Assembly: GCA_951406725.2 (NCBI GenBank)
Contig: OX597816.1
Coordinates: 57,102,001 to 57,166,000 of the forward strand
DNA length: 64,000 bases
Source: Octopus vulgaris
Lineage: Eukaryota
Direction: 5' to 3'
Made by a program: the position numbers and the translations under genes. How positions within the stretch are numbered: position 1 is the stretch's first letter; the number at the start of each line of letters is the position of its first letter. Positions 1,977-62,344 of this stretch are shown piece after piece. The notes under the pieces are model-generated. The model did no database searches. It was not told the DNA's origin and worked only from the letters and a program-made list of their open reading frames with translations.

Positions 1977-1984
1977 GACAAAGA

Positions 1985-2790
1985 AAAATCCCAGCAATGG
2001 TTGAGAAGCTCAGGACTCAAAGCAGAAACAGAGGGATTTTTAATTGCAGCACAAGACCAAAGCCTCCCCACCAGAAATTACCAAAAACATGTAATGAAAA
2101 GAAATATTACAAGTAACTGCAGAATATGTGGAGATGGACAAGAAACAATAAATCATATTATCTCTAGCTGCCCAGTCCTGGCTAAGAAGGAATATATTCA
2201 CAGACATGACAGAGTTGGAACTTACATACATTGGAAGCTATGCCAACATTATGGAATAACAACAGAAAAAGATGGTATAGGCACACACCAGAAAAGGTCA
2301 CAGAAAACGAGAAAGCAACCATACTCTGGGATATGCCGATACACACAGATAGAGAAATTAAGGCCAACAGACCAGATATAGTTGTCAGAGACCATGAAGA
2401 AAAAAATGCTTTCTAATTGATGTATCAGTACCGGCAGATGACAACGTGTCTCTAAAAGAAATGGAGAAACTCTCAAAATACAAAGACCTGGAAATAGAGG
2501 TAACTAGAATGTGGAATCTGAAAACAGAAACAATTCCTATCATAGTAGGTGCATTAGGCATGATAAAAAAATATTCAGACAAATACATAACAAAAACACC
2601 AGGACTTACAAACACATATAACATACAGAAAATTGCACTACTAGGCACTGCACACATCCTACGCAGAACACTTTCCATACAATAACCATCAGAGCATCAC
2701 AACAAATCACAGCACATACCCAAGGCACACAGAGCTGCGCTCGGTAGTGAAGTGAAAGCACGCTAAAAAAATAAAAATAAAACTACTGAA
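1985..2790 (+). mobile_element. R4/Dong-like RLE non-LTR retrotransposon 3' fragment (pseudogene) inserted in (TAA)n
   Basis: CCHC knuckle CRICGDGQETINHIISSC...HRHD and RLE motif RPDIVV..LIDVSVPAD..KEMEKLSKY, split by frameshifts; 3' UTR ends in (TAA)n and (TAA)n lies upstream. Confidence 0.9.
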
Positions 2791-8530: not shown

Positions 8531-8700
8531 TAATCCAAACATGAAAACACAAAGTGAAAACACAACAACGCGAGGACGTGGAAAAAATATAGTATTATTG
8601 GACGCTCAGGAAGGAAGGGAAGAAGGAGGGTTTAACGTTTCGGGCGGAACTCTTCGTCAGAAACATAGGAAAAGGAAAGATCCAGAGAAGGGAAGACGGC
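8526..8700 (-). mobile_element. Penelope-like pLTR fragment, family A, with decayed hammerhead (8630-8664)
   Basis: Near-identical to 38074-38275 and 39353-39567; abuts (TA)n; minus strand reads gttt CTGACGA a gagttccgccc GAAA cg TT aaac. Confidence 0.7.
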
Positions 8701-10420
8701 ATCATCAGCATATAGCATCTCCTTGGTCAGGACGCTTCTGATTTTGGTCTTGGCACGCAGACGCGAGAGATTGAACAGTTTCCCGTCACTTCTACTGTGC
8801 AGAAACACTCCATCATCTGATGTCTCAAAGGCATGTGACAGCAGCAGCGAGAAGATGCCAAATAATGTAGGAGCAAGGACACAACCTTGTTTTTCCCCGT
8901 TTTTTATTTGGAAGGCGGCTGATGTTGAACCATTGTGCTGTATGGTGCTTTGCATATCATCATGGAAAGAATTGATGATCCTCAGCAGTTTTGGTGGACA
9001 TCCGATTTTTTGGAGCAGGATGAATAGGCCTTTTCTACTTACCAAGTCAAAGGCCTTTGTCCGATCAATGAAGGCCATATATAATGGCATTTTCTGCTCT
9101 CTGGACTTCTCCTGAAGTTAGCGTATGGAGAATATAATGTCAATAGTTGATCTGCTTCTTCTAAAGCCACACTGCGATTCTGGATAAATTCGAAAAGCAA
9201 GCAGTTGTAGCCTGGTTAGGATAACGCGAGCAAAGGTCTTTCAAAAAGCGCTTAGAAGAGATATTCCACGGTAATTGTTACAATCACTACGTTCACCTTT
9301 ATTTTTGTAAAGCGTAATGATGTTAGCATCCCGCATATCCTGAGGGACTGTACCCTCTTCCCAGCACTGACACAGAAGCTCATGAAGGTGCCGAAGCAGG
9401 ATGGTGTTTTTGCTGGTTTTGATTATCTCTAAGGGGATGCCGTCTTTTCCCGGAGCCCTGTTACTTGCTAGGGAGTCAATAACCTTGGTGAGCTCTGCTA
9501 TAGATTGTCAAGTTCGCACTGTCAAGTTCGCACATGACTGACAAGATCTTGACACCCTCGATTGTAGCCTCCTACCGTGGTCTCCCGTGAGTAGAGATCC
9601 TGGTTGTACTCCACCCATCTATCCATTTGCTTGCTTTGGTCCTTGATGAGATCTCCAGTAGTTGATTTCAGAGGGGCTGATTTGGTTGCGAATGGACCGA
9701 GGGCCTTCTTCAAACCAGCATACATCCCACGGGTGTCGCCGCTGCCAGCAGCTGACTGGATACTCTGACAGATTTCCTGCCAATACCTATTTGCACAGCG
9801 TCTGACAGTCAGTTGGGTTTTATTTCTTGCCTTTCTGAGTTCGAGTGACTTTGTAGAAGAATCACTCTTTTATTGCATCAGAGCTGCACGTTTTGCTTCA
9901 ATAATTGTTTCCAGCTCTGAGAGCCCAGCACTGAGCCATTCTGTGTTTTGCCTTTCTCTCATGCCGAAAGTATCTATTGATGTAGTATACAAAGCTTCCC
10001 TGTTATAATTCCACCTACGTTCAGCAGATGAGGTTGGGCAGCTACTGAGGGCCACCTTGATAGAAACAGCAAAACATTTTCGCAGTGTAGGGTCCGAGGT
10101 TCTGGCAGTGTTAATGCGTGGTCGGCCCATTTTCTTGGAGTGATGGACTTTTTAGGCAGAATCTTCACCCTGCTTCTTATTAGTGAATGATCTGTGTCAC
10201 AATCCGCGCTGTGGTAACACGGGTCAGTTGAACAGATTTCAAAAAGGATCTTCGTGTAATTATGAGATCCAGCTGATGCCAGTGGTGAGATTTTGGGTGT
10301 TTCTAAGATGCCTTGTGGGATGTCTTGTTGGCAAAGAATGTGTTAGTGATGCACAGGTTATGGTATGTGCAAAATTCAAGTAGTCTCTGACCATTGTCAT
10401 TCATGTTGCCAATACCAAAA
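8700..10420 (-). mobile_element. RTE/BovB-like LINE fragment (end of APE plus RT, pseudogene)
   Basis: AFIDRTKAFDLVSR, QGCVLAPTLF, DGKLFNLSRLRAKTK, MLYADDA; MYAGLKKALGP...PLKSTTG; many frameshifts. Confidence 0.92.
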
Positions 10421-20035: not shown

Positions 20036-20104
20036 ATAAGGATAAAGAAAGTGGTGCTGTGTGCCGTTTCATACATTGTATATATATATATACATATATA
20101 TATC

Positions 20105-20348
20105 TGTAAATGTAATATGTGACAATTATTCGGTAGCCATGATAAAACACCGAGTTTCGGATGCCGAGGTGGAAATCCACGCCGCCATCTCTTCAGTTAT
20201 CCGGCCAAAGGAAAAGCTTTCCATCTCATATTAGGATTTTTCCGATGGTCGGATAACTGAAGAGATGGCGGCGTGGATTTCCACCTCGGCATCCGAAACT
20301 TGGAGTTTTATCATGGCTACCGAATAATTGTCACATATTACAATTACA
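20105..20348. mobile_element. Penelope-like fold-back (family C) with a hammerhead in each arm, between (TA)n tracts
   Basis: Arms of about 102 bp with a 40-bp spacer; plus arm 20252-20312 reads gataa CTGAAGA gatg..gtgg attt ccac..catcc GAAA ct tgg ag TT ttatc; mirror copy at 20141-20201. Confidence 0.85.
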
Positions 20349-20366
20349 TATATATATATATATATT

Positions 20367-22815: not shown

Positions 22816-24144
22816 TGATTACAGTGCCATTAAAAAAAAACATACGTATTCTTCGGTCCAAACACATCCACAACACCCTAAAACTCAGACAAAACTATAT
22901 TCAGTTGTCAACGTTTTATAAGGTAAATCTTTGGTCAAATCAGCGTTCTAGCTGTGACCACTGTTCCGTTTTTCTGCTAATTTATATTCACAACTGAATA
23001 TTTAAGAAAGTTTCCTTCCGATTTCAAATGCTAGAGTGGAGTTAGAGAAACACTTAGCTGTTATTTCCAGTATATCTAGCTACCATCTACAGATTAAAAG
23101 CAGAAGAACAGCAGATGTCATGAAAAGAGTAGATTCATCTTGTCTACACCTGTTGCTGTTAACACCAGATGTAAAGGCATACATACTAATTAATGAATAA
23201 GACTCGTTTCTTAGACTCTTACAGCAGACAAATACTTTTCAAGTGTTACACATTTCGGAATGGAAGGCTAGATCTGAAGTGGCTCTTCTATTTTTCTATG
23301 TGCGATAGAATCGTCTAATCTTGGGTGATGAGGGGTTAAATACCACACACATTGAAGCAGATGGGACACAGAAAAATATTCTTCATGGCTGTTTGTTTTA
23401 GAAGTCGGCTTTGTGTCGTCTCTTGTTCAATTCTATTGCGCAGCACCTCAAGCAAGAATTTTTACTGTATCCCCGGTTAGACCAATGCCTTGAGTCAATT
23501 TGGAAAGCGGACACTGTGTGGAGGCTCATCTTAGACAGATAGAGGTATGTGCCCTGGTGTTTGTTTAAGGACCCTTTAGCGGTTTTTTACAAAGGAGATC
23601 GATTAAATAAATACCAAACTTAAAATGATTAGTAGGGCCGATTTGTTCGACTAAATCCTTGTAGGAGGTACACCAGCATGATCGCATTCCAGTGAATGGA
23701 ACAATTAAAAGGTAACGAAACGAACACCGTTCTACCGTCATTCTGTTCCCCATACAAGAAGTAGAGAGTTTATGTTCTGACTAAACTCAGCTGAAGGTCT
23801 CTTCTAACTTGTATTAAAGAAAGAGATGTGTGAGGACTACACGAGAGCCACACACCAATGATCGTGAAAATTAATGTTTTTTTTTTTTTTTGGTGGGGCT
23901 TTGTTTTGCCTTGTTTTCCAGGATTTCGACAAGGCGAAACGAACTGTGGATCTTTCGAATCGTTCCGTTGAATTCTGTCGAAGTAGCCATTTTAAAACTC
24001 AACCATCACTCTTCTTCGATTGAAGCAACCCTGTAGAATAGAGATCAGTTAATACGAAAACTACTGATTTTTTTTTTAAGAATAAAATATTTTGAATGAC
24101 ACAATGGACTACAATAACTGTTATAATTTAATCATCCATCATCC

Positions 24145-24184
24145 GATATGATATTTCGGAATAAAAATTCCTTCTTCAGATATC
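24145..24184 (-). ncRNA. Minimal type I hammerhead ribozyme (family D, copy 1)
   Basis: Minus strand: gatat CTGAAGA a ggaat tttt attcc GAAA ta TC atatc; all core bases intact, helices I and II perfectly paired, palindromic AUAU helix III. Confidence 0.8.
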
Positions 24185-24444
24185 CCTAGGAGTTGATGGA
24201 GCGGCTGCTATAATCGGTTTTCCAACGGCTTTTCTGGAGTTTTTTTCCGGAAGCGTCTCAGCAGTGGTCTCATGAAGTTCCTTCCGGAATTCCTCATGAG
24301 AAGTGCGTGAGGTCAGCCATGTCCCAATCTCGTGTGTGCTGGTACATCCGTGGCGCTGCTTCTAAGTTATATGTTATACGTGCAGTTTCCCTTTTCTCCC
24401 CTTTTTTTTTGTTATAAACAATACATGAGAATGTATTGGGGGGG

Positions 24445-24846
24445 CGTAGCTGTATGGTAAGAAGCTTGCTTTCCAATCACATGGTTCCTGGTTCAGTCCC
24501 ACTGCGTGGCACCTTGGGAAAGTGTCTGCTGCTACAGCCTCGGGCCGACCAAAGCCTTGTGAGTGGATTTGATAGACGGAAACTGAAAGAAGCCCGACAC
24601 ATACACACACATATATATATGTGTGTGTGTGTTTGTGTCGGTGTTTGTCCCCACCACAAATCGCTTGACAACCGATGTTGGTGTGTTTACGTCTCGGTAA
24701 CTTATCGGTTCGCCAAAGAGACCGTTTAAATAAGTACTAGGTTCGCAAAGAATAAGTCCTGGAGGGTCGATTTGTTCGACTAAAGGCGGTGCTCCAGCAT
24801 GGCCGTAGTCAAAACGACTGAAACAAGTAAAAGAATAAAAGAATAA
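24445..24846 (+). mobile_element. SINE family 1, full length
   Basis: tRNA-like head (ctgtatggtaag / ggttcagtccc), central CA/TG tract, LINE-like tail ending aaagaataaaagaata. Confidence 0.88.
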
Positions 24847-25269
24847 TTGGAAGAGAAAAAAAATTCAAGGAACATTCTGTGTACAATATAAGTACACACA
24901 CACACATTCACACACACGCACACATTCACACACACACACACACACACGTTTGGAATAATAACAAGTACACGTGAATTTCCAAAAATATATCATTTAATGG
25001 TTGTTTAGATCTAGAAAGACTTTTTTTTTCTTCTTAATCTAATTTATAACTAAAAATAGATTCTGGAAACTTTCCGTTTAATATTAGAGGCGGCTATTTT
25101 AATTGTAGACTGCTACGTTTTTTTTCCTGTTTCTTTTTTCATTCTTCCCGTAAAGAATTGTGTAAACATTAGTTTACCTGTTATATCAAATTACACGGGA
25201 AAACTTAGTGAAAAATCTTGCGCTACTACGACGATACATACTTTCTCTCGAAGCACATCTCATTTGAAG

Positions 25270-25935
25270 TCGTGTGGCTTGATGGTTAAGGATATTCGAC
25301 TCACGATCGTAAGGTCGCGAGCTTGATTCCCGGCGGCGCGTTGTGTCCTTGAGCAAGACACTTTATTTCACTTTTCTCCACTCTATTCAGCTGGCAAAAA
25401 TGAATAGTATCTGTATTTCAAAAGGCCAGCCTTGTCCCATTCTGGTTCACGCTGTATTTCCCTGAGAACTCATCATCATCATTGTTCGACCGTGGTCGAG
25501 ACAATGGAATTTACCATGCTACGCCAGACTTCACGGTCCATCATGGCATTACGGAGCTCCTGTTGCTGGATGCCTGTATCCCTGGAGATTACATCAGGGT
25601 AGGAGAGTGTGCGCCCTCTGGTATTGCGAGTAGATGGCTTCCAGAGGAGAAGAGTAGAAATTGCCTCGTTTTCAGCTCTACAACAATGTCCAGCAAACTG
25701 GACTCTCCTACCTTTCACAAGAGATGACACAGGTGGTAGTTTCCCATATATTTGCATTTTGGTTGGATGACGCTTCCACGAGAGATTTTGAGCTCTCATA
25801 AGGAGGCGAGTGTAGGTTCCATCCGACCGCGGCAAGGGGTACGCGTGCCGGTGGGATGCTCGTTCATTTCATGAGCAGGCTGTTCCGTTGATCGAATCAA
25901 CTTGAACACTCACCGTCGTAAACGACGGAGAACCA
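25270..25935 (+). mobile_element. SINE family 2 interrupted by a LINE
   Basis: Head gtggcttgatggttaagg..gcttgattccc; body resumes at about 25835 after the insertion. Confidence 0.75.
25469..25830 (-). mobile_element. RTE-like LINE 3' end with (GAT)n tail
   Basis: DGTYTRLLMRAQNLSWKRH..RRVQFAGHC..LLLWKP..AMMDREVWR, followed by stop and (gat)n. Confidence 0.85.
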
Positions 25936-26110
25936 GTTATATTTAATTTATAGTTTCAGTTAGACCATTCTTTTAACTATGTCAATGTTTCAACTTATCC
26001 ATTGTTTCAAAACTCTACAGTTTTTATATTACAGCTATCGTACATACTCACCCATCGAACGGCCCTGTACCTCCCACAGCCCCGTACCTCCTCCTTACAA
26101 ATTATATTAA

Positions 26111-26635
26111 CCCATTAACTACCAAATTATTTTATTCATATTTTTTGGCTTTGCCAGATGTCTTAGGTGTTAAAATAATATATAGTATTTAAATTTTCTT
26201 CATATGTGAATTATTTTGGAAATTAGAAATTTTTCAGAAAGTCCCAAATAGGGATCGCTGAAAAGCAAGCATATTTATCCTTTTCTATTCAATTGCAATA
26301 ATAAATATTTTTGTTGTTTTTTTTTTTTCTTTGGAAACTATAGTATCAAGTGGGAATGTGTCTGAAATATCAATGAATGATGTGGATGGGAAAGGCAAAA
26401 CAAAAACGTTTACAAAACAGCCAATATTTTTGTGGTCCAAAAATTGCGATTTATGCCATAAAATATTGTCTAGAATTATCCAGAGCTAATAATGACAGAC
26501 TTTAATTACTATATATTGTTAAACACATCCATGCAAATGCAATGTATATAAACGATTCACTTTAAATACTACGAACAACCGGCAGTGAGACTGTTTTTAG
26601 CAGATCCCCAAATGGGGTTCATGGCAGGAAATGGG
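26111..26635. mobile_element. piggyBac-like MITE
   Basis: TTAA|CCCATTAACTACCA ... TGGCAGGAAATGGG|TTAA; subterminal inverted motif cccaaatagggatcgctgaaaa / tttttagcagatccccaaatggg. Confidence 0.78.
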
Positions 26636-28884
26636 TTAAATTCAAGGCTTTGACAATAAAGAAACATTTGGAGTTATTGCCTTCAATTCAAGGGTTTTTT
26701 AGACAAAAGTGTGATATTAGGACCCGGTTTCAATGTCTAGCAATAAAGAAATCGCTGTAAGAGATACCATAGTTCTTCAAAAAAGACAATATTATAAAAC
26801 CTGATATCATCTTTTTTATTTTTTTATCTTTGAAGTCAGCGTCAAATAAATTTATAGGATTATCAGTAATTCTTTACCTTGGCCGTCTGTCTTTCTGTAA
26901 CGTATCTGAAATTCTCATCTCTCTCTCCCTTCCTCCCTCCCTCCTTCGGTAGTTATATCTAATATAATTTTCCGGTGGATTGTTACCAAATACAGAATCA
27001 TAAAGCCTTGAAATTGAATATTTTTGTGCCTATCAAAGGTATCTTTTAACCACTCTGTTTCCATCCCTAAACATACTGTTAATGACTTTTGCATTGAATT
27101 AGTACCACCGAGGCTGCATTGATCTCAGACTAACAAGAACACTATTTGATGAATGTTTTAATAGAAATCATCCTTCAGATAAATCTTGCGGTAGATTAGC
27201 AGAAGGTTGGGGAGTCACTCACCTGGTTGATTTCAGGAAATCTGATATCGCCGGAAGTACGAAGTAATAGGAGTTTAACAGATAAAAGAAAGATGCAGAC
27301 AACTTTGTATGTTTTATTCCATTATGAATAATTCGGAGCTAAATGCTGTTGTTGATACTGTAGGGGTCACACTGTTCATCCCTCCGGTGTTAAATGAACT
27401 CTCAGAGATACTCGTACGAGATACGAAGAGTACTACAGCGCCGTGTATTTAAGGCAGACCCAAGTACCTTCTGCTTGCTGAGTGTGGTTTTCATCTTGGA
27501 AGTTCACAAGCTCAACACTGTGGTTCAGTTCTACGCCAAAATTGGTATCTCTGGCGAGTATGCTCACTAGAGGGCGCTTTAAATCGTTGTTTCCGGCAGA
27601 ATCGAGTGTCGCATCCGGCAATACGAAAACGAAATTAAGCTCCTAAGAAGAAGAGTGCACTCTTCCAATCACGTCGTCTAATGGCTAAAATTACGTAACT
27701 TTAAGTACTTCAAACTTTGAAGCACTTAAGAAATTTCTCTAGAAAAACAGGTAATTTGGTTTTCGTTAATAGCATGTGAAACTAAATTAAAGCTTCATGT
27801 TTTTAAAAAATTCATCCTGTGAAAATCTGAAATACTTCAAGTGATTGAAAACAAGATACAAGACTGATAGTGTAAGACTGTATGTGACTTAAGGAAAACA
27901 CATAAATCTGGGGGTAGATTTGTTCGATTAAAACCCTTCAAGGTGCTCCAGCATAGCTGTGATCCACTGATTGAAGTATGTAAGGTATGTAAGGTTATTG
28001 AAGAGAAGGGGCTCATTGTACAGAGAATGGATGCAACACTGTCTGAGGTGGGGGCGGGGTTACAGTGGCATCAAAATGTGGTCCTTTAATACAGAAATAG
28101 TCTTTTAATTATGATAGTGATTGATGTTGTTTAGCCCAGGGTCGATCCTTATTGAGCAATATGATCAAAGACGTTACACTGCTGACCATCTTTTAATTAT
28201 TGTGCCTCCAGGAATACATTATCCAATGCGTCATTCTCATTTTATGATAGCAGGGTGTTATTTGAGTGAAATTTGGTCGCTATATCTAGCAGGTTTAATG
28301 TGTGGAAGTGGGCTTCTATGGGTCTGCTTGCATCTTGTGATTATGAGGATTATGTGTTCTTTGATATTTGCTTTTGTTGGAATAACCCTTTAACAAGCCC
28401 TTATTTAATATTCCCTGGTCATGATTGAGCGTCTTTCATCATGAAAGACGCGCCAACCATGCCCATCTTCACTTTGTCCCTGAGTATAATGTATTTAGAA
28501 TAACCTTATTTAGTGCGTTGCTTTCAATGTATTTCAGTTTTACGATGTGTGATTTGACGAAGATGTGGCTGCTATTTCTAGCAAGTTAAGAGCCCACAGT
28601 GGTTCCTTCATTTATATCTTTATGTCGTTATTTAATGTAAATTTAACCCCAGACAGAACAGGCAGAACCATCCAGGGATCTTCTACACACTCAGTCGATA
28701 AGCTAGAACTAATAGTCAAATCAACGTCAAATTACTCCCTACTCACTGAATGCAGAAAATATCATTTGATATTACATATTTGGAAATTAGATGGAAAGGC
28801 CACGGCTGAAACGTCGTTAGGACAACAGAATGTCGAATGGGAAAACAATGCGGGAATCAACATAAAAATGTGGAAAAATAGAAA

Positions 28885-29057
28885 TTTTAATAAATCTCAG
28901 AGCGAGTTATAAACAGTAGCTACAACACAACGTGACGTACATTTGCCATTTAAATATGGTTAACCCCTAAGGGTGCATGCTACTGTAGTTTGTAGCCCCA
29001 GGAGGACACCTCCTCCAGCTGGCCATAGACACACTTTAAATGGCAAATGTACGTCAG
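28885..29057 (-). mobile_element. Family F element with short inverted end
   Basis: Aligns with 43458-43607 (aataaatctc..taaacagta..acaacgt..atatgg..ctgtag..tagccccaggag..ctccagctggc); 22-bp IR tgacgtacatttgccatttaaa / tttaaatggcaaatgtacgtca. Confidence 0.75.
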
Positions 29058-29127
29058 AAATTTTAATGTTTTGCCGTAAACTGTTGTTGTTGCAGTTGCT
29101 GCTTGTTTGTTTGTTTGTTGAGAGAAG

Positions 29128-29450
29128 CTGTCTTCGTCCCAGAGCTAGTGGGAGAGGTCCGAAACGTGGTCCTTTGCTATTCGTAAGACCGGCAGAAGAG
29201 AGCATCGACGGATGGATCAATGCGCATCCAGGCTCAGCGGTTGCGTAGGAAGTCGGGGACAAGAAAGAGTGAGAGAAATTTGGGGCGAAAGAGTACAACA
29301 GAGGTCGCCACCACCACCCCCTGCCGGAGCGTCGTGGAGCTTTAGGTGTTTTCGCTCAATAAACACACACAATGCCCAGTCTGGGAATCGAAACCGCGAT
29401 CCTCCGACCGTGAGTCCTGTGCCCTAACCAATGGGCCATTGCGCCTCTAC
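29128..29450 (-). mobile_element. SINE family 2
   Basis: ctgggaatcgaaac..gccctaaccaatgggccattgcgcctc is the reverse complement of the tRNA head. Confidence 0.82.
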
Positions 29451-30944
29451 TTGTTGTTGCTGCTGCTATTTGGCCCTAGTTGAGTTCAGCTGGAGTAGGC
29501 GTTATGTTCAAGGGTATTCCAGCCATGAACATCCCGTCGCATAAGTGAATCTAGAACTACATTATCTAATGTATCCTTCCTGTTTTGAGACAGTGGGATT
29601 TTAAGTAGAATTGGCTGCTATTTCTTTGAGGTCTAAGGACTACATTCAGTAACACACCCAATCCCCACCCTCCACTTCCTTGTTAATACTGTTAGTTTAT
29701 GTCATGAAGGGTAGGTGCGGTCAATCAGTACACGACCACCACCCCCAGCACTACCACCACCACCACCACCACTATAATTTAACTCCCCGTGATCTTCTGT
29801 GAATAATTACTGTACTTTCGGGACCCATTTCCTGGTCCCTTTAACTTCAACACTGGTTCAGTCTCTGCTCTCTTACTCCCACAACCATCATCAGCACCAT
29901 CCCTCCAAATGAGCAACCCTCTTTTCTTTCACACATGGCTAGCTTGCACTATATCATGTCTTTGTGTTGTGACTAACAACCATATAATCACACTCGCTTA
30001 ACACTACTGCTTCTCTCTTAACATCGAGCGCTACTGCTTCAATATTATTTCTTTACAGCATCGTTTTATTTCGAAGTACACACACGCATTATGAAGCGAC
30101 GAACAGACAGAATCGTCAGCGCATCACACAAAATGCTTGGCAGAAGATCTTCCGGTTTTGTTTGAATCTAAATTCCGACGATGTCAGTTTTTCCTTTTGA
30201 TCCTTTTTGGGTTCGACTAAATGAAGTTGTTGTCAAGTACCGGAGTCAATGTAATCCACTTGACCCCTTCTCCCCTCCAAAATTGCTATACTTCAACCCT
30301 GCAATAGATGGACGTCTTGTCGAAAAGAAAGTTGTGATTTCGGTCACTTAGTTGCCATGGAAACCGGGTAGCCGGCTCATTGAAATCTAGGAGACACACG
30401 CATTAAACATTCACTAGTGAGAAAGCCTAGATGATTTAAAGGGACGAGAAGACTCTATCGATCTTTAATAATAATATATATAAATACAGTGGAACCTCGT
30501 TTACGGTATCTCTAGTAACGAACACGCAATTGGGCGACAGTTGGTACCCATGCTGATGGATTGCTAATGATCTGGTGGAGTTTTAAGTCAGTTCACCTTT
30601 AATACTGTATCATTCAGTTTATGTGAATGATGTAAGATTTATTTAATGATTCGTTATTTTTCCTTTTCTATAAATTTTTATATCTAAAAAGAAGGAAACA
30701 CTCCCATCATATTGCTTTCATTTGCTCCACTCTCGAAAATCCCTATGTGAGGGTCATAGATAAGGTTTTTGTATGGGATTAAGGTACAAGTGTGTCTGTG
30801 TGATTCATGCAGGCTTCCCAATTGCATGACCCCGGGCTCAGTTTCACTGCACGTGACCGAGTCCATTGGGCCAACAAAAATTATGTGAGTGGATTTGGTG
30901 GACGGAAACTGAGAGAACACATGCATACACCCATGCATACGAAC

Positions 30945-30998
<54 letters not shown>

Positions 30999-31171
30999 TT
31001 AGTATTAACTGTCGGAAAGAGCACTCAGTACCATGGTATAGATTTATACTATCATAATTTATTCTGCTCGAATCAGCCTCTTGCTACTCTGAGATTCACC
31101 AGTAAGCACACAGGATCTTCCAGCAAATTGTGACTGGAAAAATGGATGGGATTTACACGTACATGTATACG

Positions 31172-31253
<82 letters not shown>

Positions 31254-31257
<4 letters not shown>

Positions 31258-31350
31258 AAATAATGACAATTATTCAGTTGCCATAATAAAACTCCGAGTT
31301 AGGGACGTCGGGGCGGAAATCTGCACCGGCATTTCGTCAGTTATTAAGAC
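31254..31350 (-). mobile_element. Family C Penelope-like fragment with decayed hammerhead
   Basis: Homologous to 20105-20201; minus strand ataa CTGACGA ... aactcggagttttat with GAAA mutated; abuts (TA)n. Confidence 0.7.
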
Positions 31351-31849
31351 AAAACAAAAATGCTATGAAAAAGACAGACATACATGTAAATATGTCCTTA
31401 GGTATAAGGATAAATTGAAGCAATCACTAAAGTCTCTAGAGTTTGATTTGACCATCTTGGGAAAGTCATTGCCTAGATCGATCTACATGGCGTCAAATGT
31501 GTCATGATGCTTCAAAACAATTTGAGTTGAAGAAGAACATAGAATTATACCCTGCAACCAACAGACACATTTGCTCAATCCCAGGCAACAATCAAATCAG
31601 TGTCCCCAGTGTGACGTCATAGCAAAATCCATCCTTGGACTCAAATCACGCATCCATCGTTAATAGAATCAGCCTCTTTTATTCTTTTCTTTTTAAAAGT
31701 TCTCTTTTTCCCACTTTTTTTTATCTTTATATCTTCAAAAACTCATACATCGAAATCGACATTATATATAAACTTTGCCCCTTTCAGGTAAAACGCACCT
31801 CCTTCTGTATGAAACTGGAATTTTACACTTTCGTGGTAATCCCAGAAAG

Positions 31850-32190
31850 TATGTTGGAACATCATTGAAAAGAATATAGTACAGGAACGAGTGCTAAAAT
31901 ACGGTCCTGTTTGGTTCAAGAACAGAAATACCTCTGAACATTCACTACTTAGATATCACTGTTGCTATCCTTCCTTTATGTAGGAATACTATTACCCTTA
32001 TTTTATCAGGAAAACTAACTTTTGACAAAAATTCTCCACAACGCCTCACGATTCACTGTATCAAAGGCTTTGGTCAGATCGACAAAGACCATGTACAAGT
32101 ATTTTATTCACGTGCTTTCTCTTGAACTTGTCGGAGGGAAAAAATCATGTCAGCTGTGCTTCTCCCAGCCCGATTCCACATTGGAATTCA
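31850..32190 (-). pseudogene. RTE RT fragment, old
   Basis: Minus strand LYMVFVDLTKAFDTVNREALWRI followed by a decayed QGCVLAP-like motif. Confidence 0.7.
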
Positions 32191-32199
32191 GGATATGTG

Positions 32200-32610
32200 C
32201 TTCTCTTTACTCTTTACTCTTTTATTTGTTTCAGTCATTTGACTGCGGCTATGCTGGAGCACCACCTTTAGTCGAGCAAATCGACCCTCTAGGACTTATT
32301 CTTTGTAAGCCCAGGACTTATTTTATCGGTCTCTTTTGCCCAACAGCTAAGTGACGGGGACGTAAACACACCAGCATCGGTTGTCAAGCAATGCTAGGGG
32401 GACAAACACACACACACACACACATACACATATATATATATACATATATACGGCAGGCTTCTTTCAGTTTCCGTCTACCAAATCCACTCACAAGGCATTG
32501 GTCGGCCCGGGGCTATAGCAGAAGACACTTGCCCAAGATGCCACGCAGTGGGACTGAACCCGGAACCATGTGGTTGGTAAGCAAGCTACTTACCACACAG
32601 CCACTCCTGC
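32200..32610 (-). mobile_element. SINE family 1, full length
   Basis: Reverse complement of the 24445-24846 consensus. Confidence 0.9.
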
Positions 32611-33255
32611 GCCACTCCTGCTGTTTATTATATTTTTATTGATGTGGTTAAAGATCATCCTCGCAAACATTTTCCCAGCTATGCACAAGCTTATTCCCCA
32701 GTGATTATCATATATTGTTTCCCCTTATTGTATATGTTTTATGTGTGTATGTACGTAAGTTTGTAAATTTGTATCTGTAAGTGTATGCGTGTATCTTTGT
32801 CTTGACATCCCGTGACAATTGTAAACGAGCCTCATCGTCATATAGCAATGCCTTTCCGATCTTCCGTGATAAACATGTCTGGCAATGAGGAAATATTACC
32901 TTGGTTGGAAATAGGTAAGGGTTGTCACCAGGAAAGACTTCCTGTCGTGGAAAATCTACCGCGGTGAATTCCATGTAAGTAATGCCATCATAGAAAAAGT
33001 GGTAAGGGGAGGGGCTAATGGATATTGCTACTGTTTCAGAGTTGTCTTAATAGTTTGTCGTATATTTTTTTTAAAAGTAGTAACTTGCCAATGATGGAGA
33101 GATAGATATAGAGGGAGAGACAGGCAGACAGATAGATGGATAGACTGAGTGACAGAGAGGCAGAAAGTCAGTGACAGAAAGAGACAGAGACAGACAGATA
33201 GACATAGGCAGAGAGAGAGAGAGAGAGAAATAGAGACAAAGGGAGGTAGAGAGAA

Positions 33256-33328
<73 letters not shown>

Positions 33329-33333
33329 AATAG

Positions 33334-33368
<35 letters not shown>

Positions 33369-33698
33369 AATAGACAGACAAATAGGGACAACTAGAGAGA
33401 GAGAGAGAGAGAGAGAAAGAAATAGACAGAGAAATAGATATTGAGAGAGAAATAGATATAGAGAGGTGAAATAAAGCAAGCAATATAACACAAACGTAAT
33501 AATAGGTATTGAGTTGCAATGTTCTCTTATATTGGAGATGACGGGTCAAGGGTCAGCTGTTTCTGAGTGAAGATGTAAAGCAATCCGGGCTGGTCCGAGG
33601 AGGTTTCAGGTTATTCACGCTTGGTTTACCATTCAGGACAAACGTATGTAATATATACACCCGTCACTATAAATGCACGTCGGTGTGTATAAATGGTG

Positions 33699-33819
33699 TG
33701 TTGCCTCTGGCGCGTTGAAGTTCATTTGAGTCAAAAGGAATTTGTTGGAAGGAGAACTCCTTGTCTTTAAAAAGGAGGTGAAAATTAATATCCATTTCGC
33801 CGAAAATTATTTTTTTAAA

Positions 33820-33862
<43 letters not shown>

Positions 33863-34499
33863 GTTTGTCGGCAACTTCTTGCTGAACAACCACACACATG
33901 ATTTGTTTATAGTGATGGAGGGAGGGAGTGAGCTTATGTGAACATAAACCTTTGATGTAAAGATTGTTTGCCAACATAACATGGCAGTCCTGGTTTAGGA
34001 CGAATATTGCTGTAATTTAGCCCCAGGAGACATCGTCTCCAGCTGGCTATACGACACGATCTATGTCTTTTGTTCGAAAATATAAGGACACAGATCGTGT
34101 CGTATAGCTAGCTGGAGACGATGTCTCATGGGGGCTAAATTACAGCAACATTCGTCCTAAATCAGGACTGCCATGTTATGTTGGCAAACAATATTTACTC
34201 CAAAGTACTGTTGTGAAATTTTAAAATAGTAATTTTCTAACAAACGTTTGATCACTATAAACAAATCGTCTGTGTGATCGTTCGGCAAAAATTGCCGAAC
34301 CCTCATATGCCGCCAAACGATGGGAGAGTCCTGATTGTGAACGTGCGCATACACATACACACATACACACGCATTGTTTTAAAAAAATTAATAATTTTCG
34401 GGAAAATGGATATTAATTTTCACCTACTTTCTAAAGACAATAAGTTCTTCCGACAAATTCCTTTTGACTCAAATGAACTTCAACGCGCTAGAGGCAACA
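33699..34499. mobile_element. ~800-bp nested palindrome (fold-back/MITE-like) with family F core
   Basis: Outer arms tgttgcctctggcgcgttgaagttcatttgagtcaaaagg / ccttttgactcaaatgaacttcaacgcgctagaggcaaca; middle arms; inner palindrome 33963-34192; no clear TSD. Confidence 0.85.
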
Positions 34500-34739
34500 G
34501 CCGAAAGCGAACCTTAGAGTTGACTGTCATTTCCTGTATAACAACTATACCATGGATGCACTCTAATCAATGTATTGAGTTCTACATTGGATAATGATGT
34601 ACAGATATCCGGATATGTTTTGGTGTCTTCATAAATAGTCAAGTCAAAGAAGACGTTGGCGGTCATTACATATCTTGTGTATTTTTGATAAGATTTAAGA
34701 GGGCCTTATAAGTGTTGTAATTTAATCATCCATCATCCG

Positions 34740-34777
34740 ATATGATATTTCGGAATAAAAATTCCTTCTTCAGATAT
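34740..34777 (-). ncRNA. Minimal type I hammerhead ribozyme (family D, copy 2)
   Basis: 34718-34777 is identical to 24124-24183. Confidence 0.8.
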
Positions 34778-35059
34778 GGACGTGGAGTGCATGTAGAGAA
34801 GTCTTTTTATTCTTGTTGCCAAACCTCCTTCAACACCTTTATATTTGTTGTACCATCAAAAACATTCCCCAAGAGTTTTCTCAACTTTCAGTTCTTCGAT
34901 TAGAATTTTTTTTTTTTTACTAATTCGTTGATAACAAATATACAGGTGGGCTGAGAAAAATAACATGGCCTGCGTTACCAACAAAATGAAAAGCAGATAG
35001 GATAAACTGGTCCAAGTAGGATTCCAATCCCCGAATCAAAATCATTGCGTGACCTGGGC

Positions 35060-59180: not shown

Positions 59181-60096
59181 GTAAGTATGCATGTAGTGTG
59201 TAGTCTGTGATGCACAGGGTTACAAGCATAAATGTTTAGGAGAAATTTATGAAAATGCTTTGGATAGTTAAAGGGTTAAAAAAGATTACAACTTAACAAA
59301 AAGTAATATATGCAGAGAAAAGATCAAAGTCAGATTCTTGTTCGTTTACTGAAGATAAAAAAGGTTGAGGTATTGCCGTGTGGTTAGAAAGTTGGCAACC
59401 GCGTGAATCGGGGTTCGATCTCTCAGTATGGTTCTTTGTGTAATTGTTTCTTGCCATAACCTCGGATTAACCAAAGTATTGTGGATGGAATTTGGTTAAT
59501 AGAAACTGTGGAAGTCGAACGTAAATATCATTGCTGTTCTTGGGTGTTACATTTAATTTATCACTCACTTTAATGTCATAATGTGACCTTTTAGTGTGAC
59601 CTCAGTCTGAAATATTCGGCCCAGGAGTCTGGAGTAAGGATAACTTCTTCGCCCTGCCTCCCACCCAGAACCCAAAGACCACGAACGCTACTTTTTGTTC
59701 TGTGATTAAGCGATAACCCAACTGTCTTTAATACCAAGAGATATTAAAACAAGAGAATTCGGCAAATGAGAAAAAAATATCGCGAAATATTTCTCTTACA
59801 ATAAATGTTACTGGACAGTAGACTGGTGGTGTCGCTAGAGCTTTCGGACAAAACACTCTGAAGTATTTCTTCCGGCTCTTTACATCGCGAGTTCAAATTC
59901 TGTGCAGGTCAACTTCACTTGTCATCCCTCAGTGGTCGATAAAATAAATAAACAGTCAAATACTGAGAATGTGTTAATCTCAAACACCTTTCTTCAAATC
60001 TCTGAGCGTGTGCCTATCTCAGAAAGAACTAGTTTTTGTAATGTTATAGTTGCTGTTGTTGTTGGTGTTGATGATGATTGTGGTGGTCGTGGTGGT

Positions 60097-61316
60097 GGCA
60101 ATTCTGTATTCTTGAGTGTTGTTCCGACAATTCTGTATTCTGGAGTAACTTTCTGGCAATTCTGTATTCTGGAGTGGTGTTCCGGTAATTCTGTTTTCTG
60201 GAGTGGTGTTCCGGCAATTCTGTATTCTGGAGTGGTTTTTTGACAATTCTGTATTCTGGAGTAATATTCTGGCAATTCTGTATTCTGGAGTGGTGTTCAG
60301 GCAATTTTGTATTCTGGAGTAATATTCTGGCAATTCTGTATTCTGGAGCGGTGTTCTGGCAATTCTGTATTCTGGAGTGGTGTTCCGGCAATTCTGTATT
60401 CTGGAGTAATGTTCTGGCAATTCTGTATTCTGGAGTGCTGTTCTGGCAATTCTGTATTCTGGAGTAATGTTCTGGCAATTCTGTATTCTGGAGTAATGTT
60501 CTGGCAATTCTGTATTCTGGAGTGGTGTTCAGGCAATTCTGCATTCTAGAGTGGTGTTCAGGCAATTCTGTATTCTAGAGTGGTGTTCTGGCAATTCTGT
60601 ATTCTGGAGTGGTGTTCTGGCAATTCTGTATTCTGGAGTAATGTTCTGGCAATTCTGTATTCTGGAGTAATATTCTGGCAATTCTGTATTCTAGAGTGGT
60701 GTTCAGGCAATTCTGTATTCTGGAGTAATATTCTGGCAATTCTGTATTCTGGAGTGGTGTTCCGGTAATTCTGTTTTCTGGAGTTATGTTCTGGCAATTC
60801 TGTATTCTGGAGTGTTGTTCTGGCAATTCTGTATTCTGGGGTAATGTACTGGCAATTCTGTATTCTAGAGTGGTGTTCCGGCAATTCTGTATTCTGGAGT
60901 AATGTTCTAGCAATTCTGTATTCTGGAGTGGTGTTCTGGCAATTCTGTATTCTGGAATAATATTCTGGCAATTCTGTATTCTGGAGTGGTGTTCTGGCAA
61001 TTCTGCATTCTGGAGTGTTGTTCTGGCAATTCTGTATTCTGGAGTGGTGTTCCGGCAATTCTGTATTCTGGAGTGCTGTTCTGGCAATTCTGTATTCTGG
61101 AGTAATGTTCTGGCAATTCTGTATTCTGGAGTAATATTCTGGCAATTCTGTATTCTGGAGTAATATTCTGGCAATTCTGTATTCTAGAGTGGTGTTCTGG
61201 CAATTCTGTGTTCTGCAGTAATATTCTGGCAATTCTGTATTCTAGAGTGGTGTTCAGGCAATTCTGTATTCTGGAGTAATATTCTGGCAATTCTGCATTC
61301 TAGAGTGGTGTTCTGG
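60097..61316. repeat. 29-bp minisatellite, about 42 units
   Basis: Unit ggcaattctgtattctggagt(g/a)(g/a)t(g/a)ttct; the 29-aa periodicity in the ORFs equals 3 units. Confidence 0.95.
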
Positions 61317-62344
61317 TGTTCTACTTTCTAATGTAACAGGGACGTGTCATCACATTGATTAAAAATGAAATAAATATATATACTTCGACGGAGACAAACT
61401 AAAGTACCAGTTATATGCTGGATGCCACTCAAAGAACGAAAGTCATGTGTTCATCATCGTCATCATCAACATCCTCATCTTGTCCAATATGTCCTTCCCT
61501 TTTTTTAAGACGGTAGTGTCTGATATGAGAAATTTGACAGCTACTTTTAGCAGGTCAAGTACTTGTATAAGAGGTCCCACCGTTTTGTTGTTGTTGTTGT
61601 TTGCAACTTCCCCGTCAACATCCTCGTTGCCATAGTAACTATCATTATTACTGTTGTTGCTGTCGTCGTTTTAATCACTATTACCATGGTAACCATTATA
61701 AGTCAGTAAGACTTGTGACTAAGTTGTTGCTGTTATTGCTTTTGTTGTTCTTGTGGTGGTGGCGGAGGCGGCAGCGGCGCCACAGTGGTCGTCGTCGTTG
61801 TTGTTTATAATCATTAATGACTCTCGTAATCATCCCCTCGCGAACAACTTGTCTAAGTCCATCGTGTAATTCTCGACTGTGTAATTAGCACCACCACAAC
61901 CACCCCCACACACACATAATTCCCAGCAATTAAATCCGGCGCCACAATAGGAGTGAAGCAAAATAAAATAGAATAAAAACTGGCGGTGATTATGTTTAAG
62001 ATTTCCTGACATCGCGGTTAGGTGGGTGTTCAGATGAATCGGTTCGAATTTAGAGAAAAACTGAAACAATTCGAGCAATATCAAATCGTCAAGCGAGTGC
62101 CACCATGAGGCAGAGGCCCACTGGGCAGATGTCCAGCGAGGGACAGGAGGAACGAGTCTAAAAGGGGCCGTTGTTAATGTGTGTTGTGTATGAAGAAGCT
62201 TCATTGCAGGGTTTCACCTTCGAGGGCCTATAATCCTGTTAAAACGGCACTAGTCTAGTCTTGTCTTATAAAATGTACATCATATATTTGCTGATGATTT
62301 TTAACATAAGTTAATTTACTAAGAAACATGATGATGATGATGAT

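Follow-up and report, generated by a model that had tools for sequence, protein, structure and literature searches.

A 63-base hammerhead patch in Octopus vulgaris, probably copied from a nearby truncated Penelope-like element

Minimal hammerheads of Penelope-like retrotransposon (PLE) pLTRs, as described by Cervera and De la Pena (2014, PMC4209133), have the same core boxes as the locus presented here, an extra base 5' of stem II, a G-C closing pair, a helix I of 4-5 bp and a palindromic 15.2-16.2 stretch, and are, likewise, mostly single motifs of truncated elements. Helix II has 5 bp here against the 7-8 bp given there for Schistosoma, and, unlike the hammerheads in that description, our direct copies flank no ORF and one of them is a 63-nt patch. 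Inverted hammerhead pairs 100-700 bp apart, as reported in the same source, were seen at other places in this genome. EN+ Penelope/Poseidon-type elements, such as PAc, are described (PMC11167929, PMC8557442) with an RT plus a GIY-YIG at the C-terminal end, followed by a hammerhead repeat, as well as with variable 5' truncation and inverted arrangements; the same order is found here in a longer family member, L021, a broken copy in which only the C-terminal part of RT and the endonuclease are seen. Class 2 templated sequence insertions are characterised by microhomology, small deletion and lack of TSD and poly(A) (as outlined in PMC5110952), and polymerase theta inserts are described as deriving from break-flanking DNA (PMC4032859). 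A literature search combining hammerhead ribozymes, octopus and Penelope returned PMC8557442 only, and this PLE family may be among those given in the supplements of PMC4209133 and PMC8557442.

Analysis of the window (the whole stretch of 64,000 nucleotides) confirmed the first-pass annotation in that 24124-24183 equals 34718-34777 at 60/60 positions, that the match continues at 68/70 over 24114-24183 (copy 1) and 34708-34777, and that copy 1 and copy 2 both lie on the minus strand with no flank in common, the latter being evident from window comparison. The two mismatches (24118/34712 and 24123/34717) are located at one end, outside the 60-nt perfect tract. Across the 2.8-Gb genome, the exact 51-mer occurs nowhere other than at these 2 places (control 0), and therefore the pairing is more than chance; the genome-wide count did not reveal hundreds of identical dispersed copies. 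Within a large PLE family (1150 candidates at first look) the copies are mutual best matches, with 97% identity against at most 95% for the remaining 42 of 44 matches, 40 of the 1150 candidates having been scored. Their preservation had been regarded as exceptional for this window, which did not hold: other short local repeats match equally well, namely 39096-39152/40238-40294 (96%) and 61512-61579/63933-64000 (97%). The first of these pairs is ribozyme-free and has the same mutual-best-match pattern, and we counted it in favour of local copying.

Both copies retain, as annotated, an intact core with CUGAAGA, helix II GGAAU/AUUCC and GAAA, together with one extra A and the palindromic AUAU. 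In copy 1, read on the minus strand, CUGAAGA occupies 24179-24173, helix II 24171-24158 and GAAA 24157-24154. C17 is at 24150 and, in copy 2, at 34744, and cuts are therefore predicted just before 24149 and 34743. This anatomy agrees with a minimal PLE hammerhead, i.e. CUGANGA and GAAA on either side of a helix II that pairs in both copies (pair probabilities 0.88-0.98) and an NUH cut site, with sequence and predicted folding giving a short helix I and the palindromic 15.2-16.2 instead of helix III. Helix I was predicted with 5 bp in copy 1 and with 4 bp plus a flank extension in copy 2. The intactness of the core is not unusual, since CTGA.GA and GAAA are intact in 19 of 28 family copies, picked by upstream similarity. 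Rfam returned 0 hammerhead matches at gathering threshold in the window and no hammerhead family around either copy at E up to 10; snoRNA and cis-regulatory matches (E 0.28-9.5, far under gathering scores) were taken as chance. The putative hammerhead identity is thus based on motif anatomy and PLE context, with Rfam covariance models unmatched.

Copy 1 is the hammerhead that a truncated PLE carries in its end repeat. The likely donor is a 5'-truncated EN+ copy of ~370 bp on the minus strand (24069..24435, boundaries approximate), composed of the last ~20 nt of the ORF region and the pLTR/3' region. Family loci match 24069/24101-24435 at 80-90%, and 24069-24435 is collinear with L021:1246-1634, where RT and GIY-YIG lie upstream of the same hammerhead (GIY-YIG frame, E 7.8e-6, above cut-off; RVT_1 frame, E 5.4e-5, below cut-off). 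Via L021, the hammerhead repeat is hence positioned downstream of a PLE RT-GIY-YIG ORF. The earlier description of a micro-element in unrelated flanks is consequently correct for copy 2 only, as the flanks of copy 1 are the remainder of the PLE copy. Searching the window by tblastn with both L021 frames gave no match at E 0.01, i.e. no PLE coding sequence between the copies, and these are therefore not the pLTR pair of a single element; a full-length PLE with a pLTR on either side was rejected, there being no RT-EN ORF between the direct repeats.

Copy 1 differs from the family majority at 4 of 70 sites. Alignment revealed a three-base variant shared by both copies (24138..24144, minus strand; sites 24144, 24141 and 24140, corresponding to 34738, 34735 and 34734 in copy 2), which makes a family 7-mer identical to the 7-mer next to it and likely originated in one slippage event in copy 1, preceding the copying. 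Genome-wide, the family majority 18-mer occurs exactly at 383 places and the variant 18-mer at 3, and the chance of a second variant carrier within 10.6 kb is ~1.5e-5. A variant found at only 3 places and common to both copies points at copy 1 as a local donor. Copy 1 also looks older, because its upstream PLE part (at most 89% identical to any of 40 other matches) differs from the majority at 20/252 sites, exceeding half of the 6.5% distance to a relative, organism E. The donor role of copy 1, suggested by this genome rather than by its orthologue in relatives, remains indirect, as do the direction of copying and the date of the variant.

The orthologous loci in relatives, which the annotation had proposed to inspect, proved informative. 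In organism E the site of copy 2 is empty: contig X15 record 1 (one contig, one run) links 34711 to 34805 via 30 letters, 28 of them aligning by hand to 34776-34803. Compared with this allele, copy 2 has gained 63 bases (34713..34775, minus strand, containing the hammerhead core) and lost 1, with neither poly(A) nor TSD, the absence of the latter having been noted before. The left junction has 5 nt of microhomology (34708..34712) common to the empty site and donor 24114-24118, of which 34712 has since changed in copy 2; the right junction has 2 nt (AT, 34776..34777), common to the empty site and donor 24182-24183. The insertion is present in closer relatives with 2.3% flank divergence and therefore arose between about 2.3% and 6.5% pairwise divergence. 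One private change per copy since copying amounts to 2.9%, which falls within this bracket. In X4 the insert is identical over 35 nt and the flank differs at 7/298 sites (Fisher p = 1.0).

Purifying selection, offered earlier to explain the identity, is not needed, as at most 2 mismatches in 70 would be expected with a probability of 0.16-0.77 across the permitted age range; counted against neutrality, the 60-nt perfect run has a probability of only 0.03-0.04 should the insertion date back to the split from organism E. At the family level, variation is lower in the 30-nt core (50/847) than in the upstream region (615/7122; p = 0.006), which was also counted against a neutral local copy and is tempered by the lack of difference for singleton changes (p = 0.14) and for the 12 catalytic bases (p = 1.0).

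We consider it probable that copy 2 is a 63-base insert copied from copy 1, 10.6 kb off, by microhomology-primed synthesis during germline break repair, followed by neutral drift. The left broken end would have paired with the donor over 5 nt, been lengthened along the donor's minus strand through the hammerhead and released, whereupon the extended strand would have rejoined the right end via 2 nt with loss of 1 base. The template would have been DNA rather than RNA, and polymerase theta end joining or replication template switch are candidate pathways. The patch contains neither an intron nor a tail by which the two kinds of template could be told apart. An existing empty site, an intact donor, the junction microhomologies by hand alignment and the micro-deletion without TSD or poly(A) are in concordance with a class 2 templated insertion. 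Counted against local copying, a donor distance of 10.6 kb is far for theta inserts.

The same donor could, with a distinctly lower probability, have served through RNA. A PLE or LINE RT acting nearby would have reverse-transcribed its minus-strand transcript into the broken or nicked site at 34.7 kb and stalled at the helix I hairpin, and base-pairing with the ribozyme 3' arm may have kept the RNA at the right broken end. The primed template would be the PLE sense strand. As described for the lizard PLE PAc (PMC11167929), the insert begins in AC-rich sequence on the 3' side of the hammerhead and lies at an AT-rich target, and class 2 insertions have been proposed to use RNA (PMC5110952). The ends of copy 2 coincide with those of some ordinary copies (3/28 at the 5' end and 2/28 at the 3' end), and hence fit reverse transcription too. 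Moreover, in the predicted fold the host flank at 34778..34789 (minus strand) adds 11 pairs to helix I of copy 2, and its duplex with the 3' arm (-11.6 kcal/mol) is in the top 1.2% of 15,500 window 16-mers, i.e. beats 98.8% of them, in a post hoc test; 10 of the 11 pairs, paired by hand, already exist with the E allele. However, retrotransposition usually scatters copies and would have to act in cis to land 10.6 kb away, none of 28 other copies (0 of 28) spans <100 nt, and PAc is reported to initiate with no homology to the DNA that is cut (PMC11167929), as opposed to the 5-nt homology here. An independent, very short PLE insertion later matched to copy 1 by ectopic gene conversion, one of the earlier suggestions, is conceivable and rather improbable: it accounts for the local sharing of the rare variant and for two mismatches beyond one end of the perfect tract, but it requires two events on just 70 nt of homology and an insert shorter than any other among the 28, the variant is already in organism B, whose X4 record 9 gives a match over 34624-34742, and direct local copying is more economical. 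As for a young non-autonomous micro-element, it was rejected: the exact form exists at 2 places, copy 1 sits in an older PLE copy, the insertion is found in organisms diverged by 2.3%, and none of 28 other top matches is so short. An assembly artefact or a chance meeting of two young dispersed copies is largely refuted and has hardly any probability left, even in a family of this size. The closer relatives carry the insertion, its left junction is bridged by contigs of X4 and X6 (31 letters into the insert) and its right one is covered by an X7 contig with 30 insert-side letters, one below the bridging rule; two sites differ between the copies, whose exact shared sequence is nowhere else.

It is very improbable that the copies are a selected pair acting as a long-range dimeric hammerhead that excises ~10.6 kb of minus-strand RNA, as the annotation had envisaged. 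Both cores are intact on the same strand with palindromic AUAU, the host flank lengthens helix I of copy 2, which was counted in favour, and minimal PLE hammerheads are described as weakly active in dimeric form and inactive as monomers (PMC4209133). However, the identity is compatible with drift, intact boxes are common, in vitro dimer activity was low (PMC4209133), the AUAU duplex by itself is predicted to be unstable (+1.6 kcal/mol), and co-folding of both segments did not yield a swapped helix III. Furthermore, the PAc ribozyme is reported to have depended on its protein, and RNA-seq to have shown no cut ends (PMC11167929). The host flank leaves one observation that the simple local-copy model does not explain, namely that organism E has another base at 4 of the 12 positions to the right of the junction, all 4 within 34780-34787 (P 0.004 at 6%, post hoc); assessed by hand, two of these changes improve the longer helix I, one weakens it and one is neutral. 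A 9-mer right of the junction recurs at 8574, 38118 and 39399, about chance for a 64-kb window, and is hence no ground for claiming a second template. With 1 candidate in the DNA search, the left flank is single-copy, and the genome search with the copy 2 flank found only itself (9/9 candidates scored). A motif resemblance of this flank to a decayed hAT transposase was not confirmed; Pfam gave 0 families for 2/2 short flank frames. No host-gene domain above cut-off was detected in 96 window frames (at least 72 aa, low-complexity and simple-repeat frames removed), a set which short exons would escape; Pfam matched 3 of the 96, two of them RT-related and one below cut-off. Very improbable, too, is the combined scenario, whereby the repair accident placed a full core where the flank happens to rebuild and lengthen helix I, on the strand of its parent and 10.6 kb upstream of it, and the pair was then kept as a dimeric ribozyme excising or circularising a 10.6-kb host RNA.

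It is therefore likely that the match is a neutral scar left by repair and that the two copies do not work as a pair of ribozymes. As such, it provides a clean, dated example in which the donor, the empty site and the junctions of a short germline templated insertion can all be seen, and warns that near-identical ribozyme pairs in repeat-rich genomes can stem from local repair copying without selection. Its importance would be greater if the template were RNA held by the broken end, i.e. repair in cis from an RNA template in the germline of an invertebrate, or if the two copies truly cleave as a dimer over 10.6 kb, in which case a new RNA-processing switch would have arisen in one step.

The phrase 'dimeric hammerhead' was absent from the 10 papers listed on dimeric or long-range hammerheads, circular RNA and introns. 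Animal non-LTR retrozymes, as presented in bioRxiv 10.64898/2026.07.22.740005, have the same PLE-pLTR-derived hammerhead; unlike them, our locus has no tandem array, no repeated unit between the ribozymes and no multi-copy short form. Non-LTR retrozymes were thus rejected, the copies being 10.6 kb apart with unrelated sequence and no tandem short units. Templated insertions, as described for class 2 (PMC5110952), germline microhomology-mediated (PMC8421209) and theta (PMC4032859) events, share with copy 2 the short patch, intact donor, microhomology, micro-deletion and absence of TSD and poly(A). The donor at 10.6 kb in cis is beyond the range of flank-templated theta inserts and nearer than the 'distant' class 2 donors of these accounts, and the patch at copy 2 happens to carry a complete hammerhead core. 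It is common to related organisms instead of being seen as a polymorphism.

The two minus-strand stretches, copy 1 (24114-24183) and copy 2 (34708-34777), were confirmed by direct comparison as identical over 60 nt, as described in the first-pass annotation, and as matching at 68 of 70 positions across the longer stretch. The window sits at C3:57,102,001-57,166,000 in a genome of 2.8 Gb and 227 contigs. By motif anatomy, each copy is a type I minimal hammerhead on the minus strand, with short helix I, CUGAAGA, one extra A, a 5-bp helix II, GAAA and a palindromic AUAU replacing helix III; the C17 position is 24150 in copy 1 and 34744 in copy 2. Folding supported helix II (pair probabilities 0.88-0.98) better than helix I (0.39-0.77), and an Rfam search recognised the hammerhead motif of neither copy.

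Genome search with the copy-2 region as query gave 1150 first-look candidates, the best 40 of which were scored, with 44 matches on many contigs. The flanks had been called unrelated, which required correction for copy 1, since family sequence runs on through both of its sides (about 24069-24435). Longer family members extend more than 1.1 kb upstream, and at one locus of the same genome, L021, frames just upstream of the same hammerhead matched GIY-YIG above cut-off (E 7.8e-6) and RVT_1 below it (E 5.4e-5), an arrangement that is, judging by these frames, that of an endonuclease-bearing Penelope-like element (PLE) with the ribozyme in its end repeat (pLTR). Copy 1 is truncated close to the ORF end, and neither RT nor endonuclease sequence of the PLE family was found between the copies.

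One 18-mer of the majority sequence (the most frequent base among family copies) occurs exactly at 383 places in the genome, and the exact 30-nt core at 21. Variation was assessed in 29 family copies picked on upstream similarity, which are the best-scoring ones and hence lean young; they diverged from the majority in 8.6% of upstream and 7.9% of 70-mer cells, copy 1 differing at 20/252 and 4/70 positions, respectively. The intact core had been considered exceptional, which it is not: of these best-scoring, young-leaning copies (L059, with an inverted hammerhead, being left out), 19 of 28 retain all ten box bases. Five family copies (L007, L013, L018, L025 and L026) carry a second hammerhead arm nearby, inverted or in tandem, and the inversion joint of L025 falls exactly where the catalytic box begins.

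The two copies share three departures from the majority, which make one 7-mer repeat its neighbour, probably through a single slippage. The variant 18-mer occurs at three places genome-wide, namely copy 1, copy 2 and a site on contig C4 (126917898-126917915; loci L022/L089). Other changes of this third carrier differ from those of the two copies, and it may belong to a small subfamily or reflect slippage that recurred. The computed chance of a second variant carrier within 10.6 kb is about 1.5e-5, and the donor of copy 2 is, on sequence grounds, taken to be local. Among the best 40 matches scored, the nearest upstream paralogue of copy 1 is only 89% alike, and copy 1 would therefore be older than the split from organism E; for this reason, and as the longer piece, it is the likelier donor. 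Each copy has acquired one private change since copying.

To compare orthologues, contigs from sequencing runs of four relatives were aligned to 34400-34960. One contig of run X15 (organism E) covers 34404-34711 and picks up again at 34805; of the 30 intervening letters, 28 could be aligned manually to 34776-34803, with 5 differences. Thus, the window has 64 bases where organism E, in this one contig of one run, has 2; taking the first of these as donor homology, copy 2 comprises 63 new bases with 1 lost. In this single-contig empty site, the left and right junctions share 5 and 2 nt with the donor, respectively; the insertion carries no poly(A), and the lack of a target-site duplication proposed earlier was upheld. 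The left junction is present in X4 (organism B) and X6 (organism C), with 7 other differing letters over 34410-34742 and 8 over 34400-34742, respectively; the seven listed differing sites are the same in both, which are therefore not independent. X7 (organism D) covers the right side from 34748, reaching 30 letters into the matching stretch. With the insertion in the relatives' contigs and the empty site in organism E, the insertion is therefore older than a 2.3% split (7/298) and younger than a 6.5% split (20/308), and the suggestion of a very young element has to be abandoned.

Most likely, the left broken end would have primed on the donor minus strand via the 5-nt homology, synthesis would have proceeded across the hammerhead until the strand was released, and the released end would have been joined to the right end through 2 nt. 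Inserts attributed to polymerase theta are described as derived from DNA near the break, at least in the accessible text of PMC4032859, and 10.6 kb is therefore long for that route. A real rival is an RNA template from copy 1: the copied strand is the sense strand of the element, the insert starts AC-rich at an AT-rich target, as described for PAc (PMC11167929), and some ordinary family copies end in the same zones as copy 2 (3/28 and 2/28), but none of the 28 spans less than 100 nt. Purifying selection, which had been put forward for the match, is not needed: at pairwise divergences of 2.3%, 4%, 5.9% and 6.5%, the probability of at most 2 mismatches in 70 is 0.77, 0.47, 0.21 and 0.16, and that of a perfect run of at least 60 is 0.30, 0.12, 0.04 and 0.03, while the X4 insert (0/35 differences) is not different from its flank (p = 1.0). 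Selection on the core could be argued from its variability in the family, lower than that of the upstream region with all changes counted (p = 0.006) and than that of the 3' part for singletons (p = 0.01); however, core and upstream singletons did not differ (p = 0.14), nor did the 12 catalytic bases (p = 1.0), a pattern that would be more in keeping with constraint acting on active masters than with constraint on dead copies. Furthermore, a ribozyme-free inverted pair (39096-39152/40238-40294; 57 nt, 96%), mutual best hits in a dispersed family (best 40 of 138 scored), is probably another short local copy; as it shows the same best-hit pattern, such copies are not peculiar to hammerheads.

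Folding predicts an 11-pair extension of helix I by the host flank of copy 2, and the duplex of this flank with the 3' arm ranks, post hoc, in the top 1.2% of 15,500 window 16-mers. By hand alignment, 10 of these 11 pairs are present in the E allele as well, so that most of the fit is older than the insertion, provided that E is close to the ancestral state. The pairing may be coincidental; alternatively, it may have served to retain a single-stranded donor at the right broken end. Beside the right junction, 4 of 12 bases are not those of E (P 0.004 at 6%, post hoc); the pairing is improved by two of these differences, weakened by one and unaffected by one. Broken frames surround copy 2 on the minus strand (34500-34900) and resemble the catalytic region of a hAT transposase, a reading left unconfirmed by searches of Pfam and the genome.

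Other repeats were also recorded in the window. Just left of copy 2 and beside microsatellites, a MITE-like structure consists of an inverted repeat (33699-33797/34404-34499, 91%) enclosing a palindromic repeat (about 33957-34202). At 20088-20365, a fold-back repeat (89%) bears outward-pointing hammerhead-like motifs at 20196 (-) and 20257 (+) and resembles a pLTR, inverted head to head, of a different PLE family. Four more CTGANGA...GAAA motifs, each with a short helix II, lie on the minus strand at 8660, 38196, 39490 and 43967 and probably belong to other PLE families; three of them fall in one repeat family beside (TA)n with 86-91% identity. Reverse-transcriptase-related fragments lie at 8635-9117 (-) and 1977-2378 (+) (RVT_1 E 9e-10, zf-RVT E 3e-6). 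An inverted 424-nt pair (35102-35523/36318-36731; 95.5%, separated by about 800 nt) looks like part of a retroelement folded back on itself. Another inverted pair, of 97 nt and 94%, lies 2.4 kb apart at 61484-61579/63933-64000 (continuing to L091:530), and a 29-nt minisatellite of about 40 copies occupies 60089-61329.

A putative dimeric hammerhead formed by both copies across 10.6 kb is unsupported: the AUAU duplex was computed to be unstable alone, and a co-fold of both copies' segments did not yield the swapped helix. Minimal PLE hammerheads are reported, in the available part of PMC4209133, to cleave weakly as dimers and not as monomers, and the portion available of PMC11167929 describes a protein requirement for the PAc ribozyme and no cut ends in RNA-seq. 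The feature is real, and is accounted for by a PLE pLTR hammerhead together with a short templated insertion, both already known. With RT and GIY-YIG frames followed by a hammerhead, L021 resembles the endonuclease-bearing PLEs with a ribozyme in the pLTR outlined in PMC4209133 and PMC8557442, and copy 2 matches class 2 templated insertions and germline microhomology-mediated insertions, as far as these are characterised in the accessible text of PMC5110952 and PMC8421209, respectively.
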